Assembly (NCBI GenBank): GCA_021791415.1
Contig: JAJYWQ010000064.1
Coordinates: forward strand, 4,476-68,475
From: a bacterium
Lineage (GTDB): Bacteria > Chloroflexota > Dormibacteria > Aeolococcales > Bog-877
Direction: 5' to 3'
DNA length: 64,000 bases
This document shows positions 15,980 through 31,427 of this stretch, piece by piece. Positions within the stretch are counted from its first letter, which is position 1. Every line of letters starts with the position of its first letter. Position numbers and translations under genes: made by a program. The notes under the pieces were generated by a model. It made no database searches. It was not told the origin of the DNA and was given only the letters and a program-made list of their open reading frames with translations.

Positions 15980-17266
15980 ATGCGTAAAGCCCTGGTCTTG
16001 CCCCTGGTGGGGGTGATGGCGGTGGTTGCCGGTTGCGGCTCCACCGCCTCCACTGGAAAGGCGATCAAACCCGGGCCGATCAACATCGGGGTGATAGCCC
16101 CGTTCAGCGGGCCGGCGGCTGAGTTCGGCACCCTGATCTCCGCGCCCTGCTACGCCGCCAGCGACCTCATCAACCAGGCCGGAGGGATTCTGGGTCACAA
16201 GGTCCAGTGCACCCCCGTGGACGACACCGGGGACCCGGCTGACGCTGTTCCCAACGTGACCCGAGCCATCGCCACCATCTCCAACTTCGACCTCGCGGTG
16301 GGGTTGGAGACCAACACCGCCGCGACCACCGTGCCCCTGGTCAATCGCGCCCAGATCAACATGGTGACCACCAACGGGCTCACCAACTACGACACCACCA
16401 CCGACAAGTACTTCTGGCGGCTCACCCCGGCCGACGACGCCAACGGAGCGGCGATGGTGCAGTACGCCTACAACCGGGGATACAAGCGGATCGCCGTGGT
16501 CTTCGAGAACAACTCCACCGACACCGGCAACACCCCAGGGATCGAGAAGGCGGCGGCCAAGCTGGGGGTGAAGCTGGTTACCAACACCACGATCCCCGCC
16601 GACGCCAGCTCCTACTCCAGCGTCGCCTCCACCGTGATCAGCCTGCACCCCCAGGCGATCATCTTCGACGCCGACCCCCAGTCCACCGCGACCTTCCTCT
16701 CCAACTACTCGCAGCTCACCGGGGGCAAGCTGCCCCCGATGATCACCGCCACCGACTCCCTGACCCCGGACTGGTACAACGCCGTCTCCGCGGCGGTGGG
16801 CACCGGCTTCATCTTCAACAAGGTGGACCTGGTCGGCTCCTACTTCAGCACCAGCACCCAGGCGTTCTACACCTACCGCAACGCCCTGCTGGCCAACCCC
16901 AAGACCCACGCCTTGGCCGACACCCTGGCCACGGTCGGGCCCCCCGCCTCGATCTACGACGGGATCAACATCATGGCCCTGGCCATGCTGATGGCCAAGA
17001 GCGCCGACCCCACCGTCTACAACGCCTACGTCAACGACGTGGTGACCCCCAAGGCGGGCGCGGTGGTGGTCGACACCTTCGCGGCCGGCAAGAAGGCCCT
17101 CAGCGAGGGAAAGAAGATCCAGTACGTGGGGGTCCTCGGCCCGGTCACCTTCAACAAGTACCACAACTTCGCCGGTGCCTTCGCGGCCGCCAGGTTCACC
17201 GGGTCGACCACCTCGGTCAACGCGGCGATCATGCCCGGGTCGGAGATCTCTAAGCTGCTCGGCTAG
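15980..17266 (+). CDS. ABC transporter substrate-binding lipoprotein (LivK/branched-chain amino acid family)
   Basis: Track ORF 15749..17266. Start at ATG ~15980 (MRKALVLPLVGVMAVVAGCGS, lipobox) with a GGAGGGACGGAG SD. Type-I periplasmic binding fold. Confidence 0.85.
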   Translation: MRKALVLPLVGVMAVVAGCGSTASTGKAIKPGPINIGVIAPFSGPAAEFGTLISAPCYAASDLINQAGGILGHKVQCTPVDDTGDPADAVPNVTRAIATISNFDLAVGLETNTAATTVPLVNRAQINMVTTNGLTNYDTTTDKYFWRLTPADDANGAAMVQYAYNRGYKRIAVVFENNSTDTGNTPGIEKAAAKLGVKLVTNTTIPADASSYSSVASTVISLHPQAIIFDADPQSTATFLSNYSQLTGGKLPPMITATDSLTPDWYNAVSAAVGTGFIFNKVDLVGSYFSTSTQAFYTYRNALLANPKTHALADTLATVGPPASIYDGINIMALAMLMAKSADPTVYNAYVNDVVTPKAGAVVVDTFAAGKKALSEGKKIQYVGVLGPVTFNKYHNFAGAFAAARFTGSTTSVNAAIMPGSEISKLLG

Positions 17267-17278
17267 TTCCTGACTCTT

Positions 17279-17307
17279 GCCGGGGGCGGGCCGGGCCCGC
17301 CCCCGGC
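17279..17307 (+). terminator. GC hairpin between SBP and permease genes (attenuator/partial terminator)
   Basis: CCGGGGGCGGGCC-gg-GCCCGCCCCCGG immediately after the SBP stop. Confidence 0.4.
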
Positions 17308-17327
17308 TCATCTACAAGGAGGCCTTG

Positions 17328-28913: not shown

Positions 28914-28998
28914 CCGGGAAAGCTACCCACCGAGGTAGGTATCCTTGGGGGGTGCGCCCTGGCGGATCGGGCGCGCTATCAGAGGAGTGCCAAAGCCC

Positions 28999-30576
28999 AT
29001 GCCGCTCGACGGAGTAGTCCCCTTCCCCGCGGAGTTCCAGCAGCGCTACCGAGCACGGGGATACTGGGAGGACCGGTCCATGGACCAGGTCTTCCGCGAG
29101 GCCTTTGAGCGCCACGGCGACCGCATCGCCTTGGTCTTCGGGGAGGAGAGCATCAGCTACCGCGAGCTCGCGGCCCGGTCGGAGAGGCTGGCCAGCTACC
29201 TGTGGGCCGAGGGCCTGAGACCGCTGGACCGGGTGGTGGTCCACCTCCCCAACTCTCCGGCCTTCGTCTACCTGCACTTCGCCCTGCAGCGGATCGGAGT
29301 GCTGCCGATCATGGCCCTGGCCGCCCACCGCCGGTACGAGATCGACCACTACGTGCGGCTGGCGGAGGCCACCGCCTACTTCGGAACCGACCCGGGACTG
29401 GCTGGCGAGATCCGGGAGCTGCACCCCGGCCTGCGGCTGCTGCTGACCGGCGACGAGCTCCTGCATCCCCCCTCCGCCCCTCCGGCCCCAGCTTTGGATG
29501 TCGACCCCACCGATCCCTGTGTGCTGCTCCTCTCCGGGGGCACAACGGGGATCCCCAAGCTGATCCCCCGCACCCACAACGATTACGTCTACAACACCAA
29601 GGCGGCGTGCAGGGCTCAGGAGATCTCCGCGGACACGGTGCAGCTGTGCGTGCTCCCCCTGGCCCACAACTACCCCCTTGCCTGCCCCGGCATCCAGGGG
29701 GTCTTCCTCAATGGGGGGAGGGTCATCCTGGGCTCGAGCAGCCGGCCCGAGCACGTGCTGCCCCTCATAGAGCGGCACCGGGTGACCCACGTGGGTGGGG
29801 TGCCCGCTCTCTACATCCGCTGGCTGGCCGACCGCCTGGCGGAGAGCTCTGACCTCTCCTCGGTGCTTCTGTTGCAGTCGGGCGGCCAGCGGCTGCAGCC
29901 GGAGCTCCGCCGGCAGCTGGCCCGCACCTTCCCCAATGCTTTCGTGCAGGAGAACTTCGGCATGAGCGAAGGGACACTGTTCTTCACACGGAAGACCGAC
30001 CCCGAAGAGGTCCGGATGGAGACCGTGGGGGTGCCGGTGTGCCCCGACGACGAGGTCCGGCTCACCGATGAGGAGGGCCGGGAGGTCGCCCCGGGAGAGG
30101 TCGGGGAGCTGACGGTGAGAGGGCCGTACACCCTGAGGGGCTACTACCGGGCCGAGGACTACAACCAGCGGGTGTTCACCCCCGATGGCTTCTATCGCTC
30201 TGGGGACCTGATGCGCCAGCACCCCTCCGGCGCCTACCTGGTGGAGGGCCGGATCAAGGACCTCATCAACCGCGGGGGCGAGAAGATCAGTGCCGAGGAG
30301 GTGGAGAACCTCATCCTCACGCACCCTGGAGTCCGCAACGTGGCCTGCATCCCCCTCCCGGACCCGGTTCTCGGGGAGCGGATGTGCGCCTGTGTGATCC
30401 TCAAGGAGGGGGCCGAGCTTGACCTGGGAGGGCTCTCGACCCACCTGATGGACCTCGGGCTCGCCAAGTTCAAGCTTCCCGAGAGGGTGGAGGTGGTCGA
30501 CGAGTTCCCCCTCTCCACCTTCGGCAAGGTCTCGAAGAAGCAGCTGGCGGACCGGTTCGCCTCCCCGGGGGCCTGA
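28999..30576 (+). CDS. aryl-acid adenylating enzyme paralogue (EntE/DhbE-like)
   Basis: Track ORF 28945..30576. [25 protein letters not shown] N-terminus parallels the first copy. [24 protein letters not shown] motif. Confidence 0.85.
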   Translation: [525 protein letters not shown]

Positions 30577-30578
30577 GC

Positions 30579-31427
30579 TCAGCCAACCTCGGGGGCCGCT
30601 TCCTCCTCTTCCCCGAAGAGCAGGCGCCGGGAGTTGGTGTAGAGGATCTTGCGCTTCACCTCCTCCGGCAGTTCGATCTCCTGGAAGTCCCGCAGCCAGC
30701 GCTGGGCGGTCATCACCGGGGCGTCGGTGCCGAACAGCACCCGATCGGGGAATATCCCCTTGGCGTACTTCCAGACGGTTTCCGGGATGTACTTGGGCGA
30801 CCACCCGGAGAGCTCCAGGTAGCAGTTGCGCCGGATCCAAGTGACCGAGATCGCCTGGTTGACCCAGGGGAATCCGAAGTGGGCCAGGATCAGGCGGAGG
30901 TTGGGGAAGTCCAGGGCCACCTCGTCCAGGTGGGTGGGGTCCCCGTACTGCATCCGGCCACCTGACTGGTTGTGCCCGGTGTGGACCAGGACCGGGATTC
31001 CCAGCTCCTCGGCCTTGGCCCAGAGGGGATAGTGAGCACGGTCGTTGGGATAGAAGTGCTGGGTCGGGGGGTGGAGCTTGAGGCCGCGCATGCCCAGGTC
31101 CCGGACGGCGTGCTCCAGCTCCTCGATCGCCAGCTGATGCTTGTTGGGGTCGACGCTGGCGAAGCCCACGAAGCGGTCGGGGCGCTGGGCCACCAGGTCG
31201 GCAACCATCTCATTGGGGACCTTCCAGCCGTGGGTTGTCTCGCAGTCGAAGGCCAGGAGTGCGGCCAGCTCCACCCCGGCCTCGTCCATGGAGCGGACCA
31301 TGTCGTCCACGGTGATCGGCTTGCCGTCAAAGTTGAAGGTCTTACGGGCGTGGCCCCAGAACCACTCCGGGGTCACCGCCAGCACCTCCTCGGTGTACGG
31401 GTGCACGTGGATGTCAATCGATTTCAA
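30579..31427 (-). CDS. amidohydrolase-2 family protein
   Basis: 282 aa. MKSIDIHVHP N-terminus and conserved His/Asp positions of PF04909. Confidence 0.8.
   Translation of the reverse strand: MKSIDIHVHPYTEEVLAVTPEWFWGHARKTFNFDGKPITVDDMVRSMDEAGVELAALLAFDCETTHGWKVPNEMVADLVAQRPDRFVGFASVDPNKHQLAIEELEHAVRDLGMRGLKLHPPTQHFYPNDRAHYPLWAKAEELGIPVLVHTGHNQSGGRMQYGDPTHLDEVALDFPNLRLILAHFGFPWVNQAISVTWIRRNCYLELSGWSPKYIPETVWKYAKGIFPDRVLFGTDAPVMTAQRWLRDFQEIELPEEVKRKILYTNSRRLLFGEEEEAAPEVG

Follow-up and report, generated by a model that had tools for sequence, protein, structure and literature searches.

A conserved dehydrogenase, EntE-clade ligase, and amidohydrolase cassette in a Dormibacteria gene cluster with a probable role in carboxylic acid catabolism

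The gene cluster described here lies in a 64,000-nucleotide stretch of DNA (positions 4,476 to 68,475 of contig JAJYWQ010000064.1, assembly GCA_021791415.1; hereafter the window) that matches contigs of metagenome-assembled genomes of Candidatus Dormibacteria, e.g. GCA_021836205.1, and has a G+C content of ~70%; its host is not an actinomycete. An original prediction, made by a model from the letters of the DNA, had described a plus-strand operon of 12 genes (15980-30576) in which a Liv-type ATP-binding cassette (ABC) importer is coupled to several enzymes, among them two ligases that resemble the aryl-acid adenylases EntE and DhbE, each paired with an Amidohydro_2 gene. Genes in the window were called by third-position GC, and their starts were refined using ribosome-binding sites (RBSs) and the genes called on near-identical contigs. 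Pfam and NCBIfam give exactly the domains that had been named for the 12 genes. We found that the ligases and amidohydrolases belong, together with a dehydrogenase, to a three-gene unit that recurs across many phyla. The genes of the cluster are as follows.

15980-17266, plus strand: SBP, Liv-type ABC substrate-binding lipoprotein (Peripla_BP_6; Pfam, start and RBS inspected)
17328-18215, plus strand: LivH-type ABC permease (BPD_transp_2; Pfam)
18351-19247, plus strand: LivM-type ABC permease (BPD_transp_2; Pfam)
19244-20083, plus strand: LivG-type ABC ATPase (Pfam; start overlaps the LivM stop, TTGA)
20070-20831, plus strand: LivF-type ABC ATPase (Pfam)
20828-22480, plus strand: three-domain thiamine diphosphate (ThDP, or TPP) enzyme, like benzoylformate decarboxylase (BFD) (Pfam, NCBIfam; GTGA overlap with LivF)
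22500-24272, plus strand: CocE/NonD-family S15 serine hydrolase (Peptidase_S15/PepX_C), putative esterase (Pfam, NCBIfam)
24269-25282, plus strand: luciferase-like (LLM) oxidoreductase, F420-type (Pfam, NCBIfam)
25279-26946, plus strand: Lig1, EntE-clade ANL enzyme, proposed acid:CoA ligase (Pfam, NCBIfam, tree)
26943-27950, plus strand: AH1, Amidohydro_2 protein of a 3ij6-like subfamily (Pfam, PDB search; ATGA overlap with Lig1)
28047-28913, plus strand: TrmB-family transcriptional regulator (Pfam, NCBIfam)
28999-30576, plus strand: Lig2, EntE-clade ANL enzyme, proposed acid:CoA ligase (Pfam, NCBIfam, tree)
30579-31427, minus strand: AH2, CouO/HpeF-type Amidohydro_2 protein, proposed beta-ketoacyl-CoA C-C hydrolase (Pfam, sequence comparison)
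31472-32236, minus strand: FabG-like short-chain dehydrogenase/reductase (SDR), proposed 3-hydroxyacyl-CoA dehydrogenase of triad B (Pfam, NCBIfam)
32233-32784, minus strand: OsmC-like gene, called as two open reading frames (ORFs; 79 and 103 aa)
32777-34927, minus strand: large subunit of a xanthine-dehydrogenase-family molybdenum (Mo) hydroxylase (Pfam)

The four-base start/stop overlaps reported for the plus-strand run (GTGA at 20828, 24269, and 25279, and ATGA at 26943) are all present, as is a further one, TTGA, at 19244; trmB is flanked by gaps of 96 and 85 nt. The convergent Amidohydro_2 gene at 30579-31427 is also where it had been placed. It had been counted as a third gene of its family, but tblastn over the whole window finds two Amidohydro_2 genes and two ligases, and the convergent gene, AH2, is the partner of Lig2 and not an extra copy. 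Nor does the unit end at 31427, as had been supposed. A tightly coupled minus-strand set (Mo hydroxylase, OsmC-like gene, SDR, and AH2), whose junctions overlap or abut, ends with AH2, and the functional unit therefore runs past that point, to ~34927. A scan for sigma-70 promoters and intrinsic terminators that was to give the operon boundaries performed at chance level, and a search for a TrmB operator among inverted repeats of five intergenic regions returned two short unrelated palindromes and no shared motif.

At the head of the cluster, SBP carries a signal peptide with a lipobox cysteine (MRKALVLPLVGVMAVVAGCGS); for its ligand, a PDB search returned only a weak Leu/Ile/Val-binding homologue and was uninformative. 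There is no ATG, GTG, or TTG before 18351 in the livM frame, yet an open frame reaches back to 18222, and its translation gives a plausible transmembrane N-terminus, preceded by GGAGG and by an ATC at ~18252; the LivM proteins of relatives are longer (324-376 aa). The longer relatives and the open upstream frame suggest a non-canonical start or a small sequence error, and the true start is probably the ATC at ~18252.

A profile search of species-representative genomes with the ligase clade returned at least 590 relatives, and gene context was counted in the best 80 loci (individual loci bear numbers prefixed with L). These span Dormibacterota, Chloroflexota, Actinomycetota, Binatia, Deltaproteobacteria, Acidobacteriota, and Alpha- and Betaproteobacteria, and include cultured strains. 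The pairing of ligase and Amidohydro_2 genes, which had been put forward for the window, proved to be real and general across loci: an AH2-type amidohydrolase (~33% identity) lies near the clade ligase in 63 of the 80. The strongest co-conserved partner is a homologue of the window SDR (66/80 loci, 54-65% identity). De novo clustering of neighboring ORFs gave a canonical order of SDR, ligase, and an amidohydrolase of ~280 aa, all in one direction. Within 4.5 kb of the ligase, an SDR and a CouO-type hydrolase occur together in 52 of the 80 species loci, from many phyla, an LLM and a CouO-type hydrolase without an SDR in 3, and an SDR with an AH1-type hydrolase only in 4; loci without triad partners are mostly truncated contigs. 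An orthologous LLM (54% identity) takes the place of the SDR beside the ligase and a CouO-type hydrolase at L018-L020 and L099, and an AH1-type protein holds the hydrolase position at L023, L032, and L038. The conserved unit is a triad of a dehydrogenase, an EntE-clade ligase, and an Amidohydro_2 hydrolase, and the window holds two of them, triad A (LLM-Lig1-AH1) and triad B (Lig2-AH2-SDR, a rearrangement of the canonical order). The original prediction had not named the dehydrogenase partner, be it SDR or LLM, and its presence changes the chemistry to be expected.

The remaining genes of the window are less constant companions: AH1, TrmB, the Liv system, the ThDP enzyme, CocE, LLM, and the Mo enzyme are each found near a clade ligase in 7-23 of the 80 loci, with varied identity (TrmB in 13-14). 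Regulators at other loci are of the LysR, TetR, or GntR type, where the window has TrmB. Relatives with a 72-90% identical ligase (L011-L015) show the gene order of the window, and parts of it reappear in other phyla. Relatives of AH1 (51-53% identity; L100-L102) lie directly beside a Liv ABC system, a BFD-like ThDP enzyme, a Mo hydroxylase, and TrmB. The ThDP enzyme is co-conserved with the Liv system, AH1, and the Mo enzyme in L022 and L102, and the Mo hydroxylase in L013-L015, L022, L100, and L102. In the actinobacterial locus L022, where the order is LivF, ThDP enzyme, CocE, Mo large subunit, ligase, CouO-type hydrolase, SDR, and TrmB, the AH1-associated set joins the triad. These recurring partners indicate that the gene set of the window is a conserved functional neighborhood and not a chance juxtaposition.

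Other neighbors bear on the fate of the activated acid. Enoyl-CoA hydratases (ECHs) are present in 19-21 of the 80 loci and a PcaF-type thiolase in 14, and Burkholderiales often extend the triad to a divergent LysR gene followed by Bug, SDR, ligase, amidohydrolase, thiolase, ECH, and ECH. An annotated operon of this kind on a catabolic plasmid of Acidovorax encodes a tripartite tricarboxylate transporter substrate-binding protein, an SDR, an AMP-binding protein, an amidohydrolase, a carboxylesterase, a pcaF thiolase, and two enoyl-CoA hydratases, and adjoins ben/cat genes and a gallate dioxygenase; its thiolase exceeds the equivalog cutoff for PcaF (3-oxoadipyl-CoA thiolase), and one hydratase is PaaF-like. 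Only two annotated plasmids, of Acidovorax and Sphaerotilus, carry clade members. On the metagenome contig L007 (1-21659; copy L008 from GCA_027417635.1), which has a ligase 66% identical to Lig1, there are two clade ligases: an LLM and AH1 accompany one, an SDR and an ECH the other. The surrounding genes encode Rieske alpha and beta subunits, LigB, a tautomerase, and a class II aldolase, and further a thiolase, a CocE hydrolase, a Liv ABC system, and TrmB. L007 and L099 (1-7966) would be good loci for the aromatic branch of the pathway family. Dioxygenases of the LigB or gallate type are neighbors of the triad at just 3 of the 80 loci. The CoA-linked intermediates that had been suggested for the window gain support from the enzymes encoded beside the ligases, among them enoyl-CoA hydratases, thiolases, and, more rarely, ring-cleavage dioxygenases.

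Lig1 and Lig2 share the ANL fold of EntE, DhbE, CahJ, and PchD. Both contain AMP-binding and AMP-binding_C domains and the EntE/DhbE-type core motif that had been quoted for them, and the SGGTTGxPK motif (here SGGTTGIPK), HN(F/Y)PL, and the catalytic lysine (K519 of DhbE) are conserved. Their closest solved structures are aryl-acid adenylases of non-ribosomal peptide synthetase (NRPS) systems (6e8o, CahJ 5wm2, DhbE 1md9, and PchD), and the nearest NCBIfam model for both is the equivalog TIGR02275 for 2,3-dihydroxybenzoate (DHB)-AMP ligase. Both fall below its cutoff (501.6 bits for Lig1 and 508.7 bits for Lig2 vs 723.55), as they do for PRK10946 (460 and 463 bits vs 783). The two proteins are 54% identical to each other, 47-75% identical to the ligases of the related loci, and 41-49% identical to CahJ, DhbE, and PchD; the ligase next to AH2 is ~30% identical to a CouL-like ligase and belongs to a different ANL clade from it. 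In a neighbor-joining tree, 89 context-sampled ligases from loci picked by similarity to the query ligase profile form one clade (100/100 bootstrap), with DhbE, CahJ, and PchD apart (94/100). Lig1 and Lig2 fall in separate, well-supported subclades, and the second ANL ligase of L007 nests within the clade.

The substrate pocket of the clade also differs from that of the NRPS enzymes. With positions numbered after DhbE and tallied over the 89 clade members, the residues are these.

N235: N, invariant (89/89)
Y236: L (71/89)
S240: C (81/89)
A308: Q (89/89)
Q328: E (89/89)
V329: N (79/89)
V337: L or I (88/89)
N338: M or F (82/89)
Y339: F (81/89)

The pocket of Lig1 reads N235 F236 S240 Q308 E328 V329 L337 M338 I339, and that of Lig2 reads N235 Y236 C240 Q308 E328 N329 L337 F338 F339. 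Specificity-code analysis of both ligases matched neither the code for DHB (N235 Y236 S240 V329 V337) nor that for salicylate (F236 C240 L/I337 with a small residue at 308).

The likeness to NRPS adenylases raises the prospect that Lig1 and Lig2 serve a carrier protein or NRPS encoded elsewhere, as in siderophore synthesis, or act as stand-alone amide-bond synthetases, and the closest structures and the automatic name of DHB-AMP ligase speak for it. However, no carrier protein, condensation, isochorismatase, or isochorismate synthase genes lie in the 64-kb window, where Pfam was run on all large ORFs, or in more than 90 related loci, as had been claimed for the carrier protein, NRPS, and isochorismatase. 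Six-frame scanning of the window found no credible carrier-attachment motif, the Pfam-annotated related contigs (L001-L012) held no carrier, condensation, or isochorismatase genes, and at the 80 genome loci there was no second adenylation domain, no NRPS-like ORF of at least 900 aa, and no plausible small carrier ORF. The steady partners of the clade are instead importers, dehydrogenases, hydrolases, and CoA-dependent enzymes, and the ligases have changed pocket residues. With the domain, motif, second-adenylation-domain, and long-ORF searches of the window and the 80 loci negative, we rejected an NRPS/siderophore role, and consider a biosynthetic function of either kind extremely improbable. 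The view that the cluster is catabolic or serves salvage, and is not a siderophore locus, is supported by the absence of NRPS genes from the window and the related loci, the separate ligase clade, and the sub-cutoff scores. We propose that Lig1 and Lig2 would transfer the acid to CoA and not to a carrier protein.

The closest known pathways to the triad are Cou of Rhodococcus jostii RHA1 (CouL ligase, CouN hydratase, CouM dehydrogenase, and CouO amidohydrolase), Hpe (HpeE/HpeF), and Pip (PipUVWX), in which a CoA thioester becomes a beta-keto thioester that an amidohydrolase cleaves at a C-C bond with no thiolase, an order of events that we infer for the cluster. CouO is reported to be a beta-ketoacyl-CoA hydrolase (PMC4737184), HpeF, which shares 95% identity with CouO, carries the annotation hydroxyphenyl-beta-ketopropionyl-CoA hydrolase (PMC9618137), and the Pip proteins (PipUVWX) work along the same lines (PMC12753220). 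Over its full length, AH2 is homologous to CouO/HpeF-type references (34-38% identity, E 1e-58 to 1e-64), as is the ~280-aa cassette amidohydrolase (41-46% identity). The references come from L095 and L096, an hpe-like locus on a Rhodococcus plasmid (phosphatase, acyl-CoA synthetase, and amidohydrolase) and a cou-like locus of Nonomuraea (SDR, amidohydrolase, MaoC hydratase, major facilitator superfamily transporter, and ligase); the gene content of an Alloyangia locus (MarR, ligase, ECH, SDR, tripartite ATP-independent periplasmic transporter, feruloyl esterase, and amidohydrolase) is similar to that of the cou pathway for hydroxycinnamates. The catalytic positions are kept in AH2: it shares with 119 relatives HxH, D93, H119, H149, H183, LSGWSPKY, and D235, the Asp of an FGTD motif that aligns with the FGSD Asp of CouO/HpeF (position of CouO Asp257). 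The best solved match of AH2 is the uncharacterized protein BB4693 (3irs), and decarboxylase structures match it partially and weakly (E ~1e-9). Among the contexts of its relatives, a 59%-identical protein (L099) follows a divergent GntR gene and precedes LLM, ligase, LigB, and, further on, LigA; a 46%-identical protein lies with two acyl-CoA dehydrogenases and a thiolase, and a third context was uninformative.

AH1 is of another kind. It matches the CouO/HpeF-type references at E ~1e-5 only, and its best solved match is the uncharacterized structure 3ij6, followed by decarboxylases: aminocarboxymuconate-semialdehyde decarboxylase (ACMSD; 2e-25), LigW (5e-23), and the gamma-resorcylate (6e-22), salicylate (6e-15), and 2,3-DHB (6e-14) decarboxylases. 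AH1 shares their fold and keeps His156, His206/207, and Asp283, which align with the downstream His/His/Asp of ACMSD. At its N-terminus, D-A-Y-S-H replaces the canonical metal pair (HxH or ExH), giving D-x-Y-x-H where ACMSD-type enzymes have HxH; the Tyr at the first metal-ligand position is present in 116 of 117 relatives and in 3ij6. Given this Tyr variant, the activity of AH1 is the least certain element of the cluster.

These relationships bear on the scheme that the original prediction had proposed, in which a hydroxy-aromatic acid of the salicylate, 2,3-DHB, or resorcylate type passes through aryl-AMP and aryl-CoA, and the Amidohydro_2 proteins are reversible non-oxidative (de)carboxylases. 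Such a role is not supported for AH2, which with the cassette hydrolase groups with CouO/HpeF and lies outside the decarboxylase group entirely; for AH1, which is nearer to ACMSD and LigW (E-values from 1e-25 to 1e-14 across the decarboxylases) and keeps the downstream metal-binding positions, it is possible but unproven. Ligase pockets that are partly salicylate-like also fit the scheme. The original description of SdgA, the ligase of the pathway from salicylate via salicylyl-CoA to gentisate in Streptomyces sp. WA46, reportedly remarked on its likeness to AMP-ligases. With its measured kinetics, SdgA shows that an ortho-hydroxybenzoate:CoA ligase can be catabolic (PMC11848710). The analogy drawn earlier with a two-ligase Streptomyces scheme covers this step. 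It does not extend to the rest, since Pfam finds no salicylyl-CoA hydroxylase (the 5-hydroxylase of the Sdg pathway) and no cupin dioxygenase, such as gentisate 1,2-dioxygenase, among the window genes; the Sdg pathway, for its part, is without the SDR/amidohydrolase triad. A decarboxylase acting on the free acid would moreover compete with the ligase for the same carboxylate, the invariant Tyr of AH1 departs from the HxH of the aligned ACMSD structures, and the near-universal dehydrogenase partner is left unexplained. We regard the decarboxylase scheme as unlikely.

The other enzymes of the cluster can be placed by family. The ThDP enzyme is nearest to benzoylformate decarboxylase, below the NCBIfam equivalog cutoff (318 vs 493 bits), and the S15 hydrolase, distantly related to cocaine esterase, keeps the GVSY nucleophile motif. 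The LLM protein has its best matches among F420-dependent LLM families and Mer, and we propose it as the dehydrogenase of triad A. The window SDR is FabG-like. No 2Fe-2S or FAD subunit gene adjoins the Mo-hydroxylase large subunit, and two neighboring ORFs at 35225-36376 (127 aa and ~170-195 aa) have no Pfam matches.

The Mo hydroxylase has a part in a further explanation, in which the CoA thioester made by the ligase would be that of a heteroaromatic 2-carboxylate (of the picolinate, 3-hydroxypicolinate, or pyrrole- or furan-2-carboxylate type), the ring would be hydroxylated by the Mo enzyme, and the lactam or lactone so formed would be opened or decarboxylated by the amidohydrolases. EntE-clade NRPS enzymes accept heteroaromatic ortho-hydroxy acids, and the furoate pathway joins a CoA ligase with a Mo dehydrogenase. 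Consistent with such a substrate, the polar residues Q308, E328, and N329 that line the pocket are invariant or nearly so, and the Mo large subunit is co-conserved with AH1, the Liv system, and the ThDP enzyme, at several loci together with the ligase. However, the Mo enzyme lies beside the ligase in only ~10 of the 80 loci and has no adjoining Fe-S or FAD subunits, the SDR/CouO core is unexplained, and no characterized member of the family ties the steps together. We therefore find a heteroaromatic route very unlikely.

The reading that we favor, with a probability of roughly one half, is that the cluster is catabolic and would act on one or two imported carboxylic acids by an activate, oxidize, and cleave sequence via CoA thioesters. 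From gene content, homology, clade structure, and co-conservation, we infer each catalytic step and the class of substrate, which is probably that of plant- or lignin-type hydroxy-acids released from an ester. The Liv-type ABC system would import the substrate and the CocE/NonD hydrolase would free the acid from its ester, after which Lig1 or Lig2 would adenylate it and transfer it to CoA. The beta-hydroxyl would then be oxidized to the beta-keto group, by the FabG-like SDR in the case of Lig2 and by the F420-type LLM in that of Lig1. An Amidohydro_2 protein, either AH2 of the CouO/HpeF type or the atypical, ACMSD-related AH1, would hydrolyze a C-C bond of the beta-ketoacyl-CoA in a retro-Claisen reaction. 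The products would be acetyl-CoA and a shortened acid or, if the bond were endocyclic, a ring-opened dicarboxylyl-CoA. The co-conserved ThDP enzyme and Mo hydroxylase would probably form a side branch from an alpha-keto acid via an aldehyde to an acid, and TrmB is the likely regulator. As in Cou, an SDR adjoins the AH2-type hydrolase. Unlike in Cou, the ligase is of the EntE/DhbE clade and not of the 4CL or acetoacetyl-CoA-synthetase type, the window has no hydratase, an F420-type LLM can replace the SDR, TrmB stands in place of the MarR-type CouR, and there are in addition an ACMSD-like AH1, a ThDP enzyme, a CocE hydrolase, and a Mo hydroxylase.

Several points weigh against this activate, oxidize, and cleave reading. 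The window cluster contains no ECH or MaoC gene by Pfam, and thus a cinnamate-type substrate would need a hydratase encoded outside it or would have to be beta-hydroxylated already. The EntE-like pocket, which keeps N235 and is partly salicylate-like (C240, L337), suits a ring-attached carboxylate over a propanoid side chain. The SDR is generic and FabG-like and shares 33-38% identity with CouM-like SDRs. Identity between AH2 and the canonical cassette hydrolase is only ~34%, the nearest relatives of AH2 in the databases lie in mixed contexts, and the CouO/HpeF-type references were recognized by gene context and genus and not by accession. Being far from CouO and nearer to the decarboxylases, AH1 makes triad A much less secure than triad B. 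Finally, the best 80 loci are the top matches to the ligase profile and so are biased toward the clade, and the tree was rooted with distant ANL ligases and includes three NRPS references transcribed from alignments.

Where the cleaved bond would lie is a question on which the evidence points in two directions. Exocyclic cleavage, to an aromatic acid and acetyl-CoA, is favored by the CouO/HpeF precedent and by the LigAB or Rieske dioxygenases beside the triad at L007, L009, and L099, which suggest an aromatic product. For endocyclic cleavage, the ligase would activate a cyclic 2-hydroxy-carboxylate (an alicyclic, hydroaromatic, or reducible polyphenolic acid), the SDR or F420-LLM would form a cyclic beta-keto thioester, either oxidatively or by donating hydride to the ring, and the Amidohydro_2 protein would open the ring to a dicarboxylyl-CoA for beta-oxidation. 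EntE-type pockets fit a ring-attached carboxylate with an ortho (beta) hydroxyl, and in Burkholderiales the genes after the triad encode a thiolase above the PcaF cutoff and two hydratases, one of them PaaF-like, and no acyl-CoA dehydrogenase. Some F420-dependent LLMs move hydride onto activated aromatic rings, and in anaerobic benzoyl-CoA pathways, with BadH (2-hydroxycyclohexanecarboxyl-CoA dehydrogenase) and BadI (2-ketocyclohexanecarboxyl-CoA hydrolase) or with Had and Oah, SDR-type oxidation of a beta-hydroxyacyl-CoA is followed by retro-Claisen ring opening and beta-oxidation of the dicarboxylyl-CoA. The order of reactions fits endocyclic cleavage. The analogy is functional only, as BadI and Oah are crotonase-family proteins and not amidohydrolases, and an amidohydrolase acting as a BadI analogue is without known biochemical precedent. 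The characterized relatives CouO and HpeF, in addition, cut an exocyclic bond, and there is no thiolase or hydratase within the window cluster. Scarce as ring-cleavage dioxygenases are beside the triad, which accords with ring opening by other means, their presence in 3 of the 80 loci meant that co-occurrence did not settle deacetylation versus ring opening. On balance we judge ring opening by the amidohydrolase to be rather unlikely. That the triad opens the ring of ortho-hydroxy (beta-hydroxy) cyclic or polyphenolic carboxylic acids by an unrecognized route independent of oxygenases, with a CouO-type or Tyr-variant AH1-type opener and a PaaF/PcaF-like tail, is quite unlikely; if true, it would give the amidohydrolase superfamily a new catalytic role and would mean that siderophore-type adenylases had given rise to a new clade of catabolic CoA ligases.

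The combination of genes had been said not to be a standard described pathway, and we found no published description of it in the searchable literature, a review of aryl-CoA ligases included. Compared with Cou, Hpe, and Pip, what is new is the other ligase clade, the interchangeable dehydrogenase and hydrolase types, the other regulators, and the attached set of ThDP enzyme, Mo hydroxylase, esterase, and importer. The comparison defines a three-gene cassette with exchangeable parts (SDR or F420-LLM; CouO-type or AH1-type) and would extend the idea of an amidohydrolase in place of a thiolase, as in CouO, well past actinobacterial hydroxycinnamate catabolism. It also bears on annotation. Clade ligases are automatically named '(2,3-dihydroxybenzoyl)adenylate synthase' (NCBI) or '2,3-dihydroxybenzoate-AMP ligase' (JGI), despite their scores below the TIGR02275 cutoff, and relatives of AH1 are named 'aminocarboxymuconate-semialdehyde decarboxylase'; judged by the comparisons above, both names are probably wrong. 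The DHB-AMP label invites a false inference of catecholate siderophores in Dormibacterota, Chloroflexota, Actinomycetota, Binatia, Burkholderiales, and others. Cultured carriers of the cassette are Acidovorax sp. DW039, whose orthologue of the ligases is WP_338799294, Ramlibacter rhizophilus, Pusillimonas noertemannii, Microbacterium testaceum, Umezawaea tangerina, and Haloechinothrix halophila. The cluster suggests that the poorly known Dormibacteria take up and use organic acids from plants or soil.

The OsmC-like gene of the minus-strand unit is a candidate selenocysteine protein mis-called as two genes. Its two ORFs are in one frame and are split by a single TGA at 32545-32547 (minus strand), with the readthrough context ...LLAGAAF-TGA-MLTQVAKFSP... 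and a second Cys downstream in ERACHAS. Relatives as distant as 73% identity (L013-L015) retain the TGA and its flanks, and the substitutions to either side of it are conservative. Starting 14 nt downstream of the TGA is a hairpin, GGCGAA-GUU-UUCGCC, that is identical in L015; in a test for a selenocysteine insertion sequence, the hairpin was conserved and its folding energy was not distinctive (z = 0.09).

Divergent from the SBP gene, the minus-strand region 12226-15634 encodes a GCS2 carboxylate-amine ligase, a weak match to circularly permuted ATP-grasp type 2 proteins, and a 312-aa protein without a Pfam match; we saw no evidence tying this region to the cluster. Just past the minus-strand unit, a second luciferase-like oxidoreductase gene (36524-37400, minus strand) lies beside mscL (37493-37897) and keeps the same place on near-identical contigs. 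Further along is a block, 38000-46000, with a G+C content of ~65% against 70%, which also holds several ORFs without Pfam matches and is probably a horizontally acquired insertion. The other features of this part of the window are as follows.

38773-39660: alpha/beta hydrolase
41027-42058, minus strand: IS630-type DDE_3 transposase
43878-44432: extracytoplasmic function (ECF)-type sigma factor
45700-45772, minus strand: tRNA gene, at the end of the low-G+C block
52158-53114, minus strand: phosphomethylpyrimidine kinase, downstream of the TPP riboswitch
52955-54442, minus strand: cytosine/purine/thiamine-family permease, downstream of the TPP riboswitch
54449-54551, minus strand: TPP riboswitch (58.7 bits, above the gathering threshold)

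The riboswitch, permease, and kinase are a standard thiamine-precursor salvage unit.

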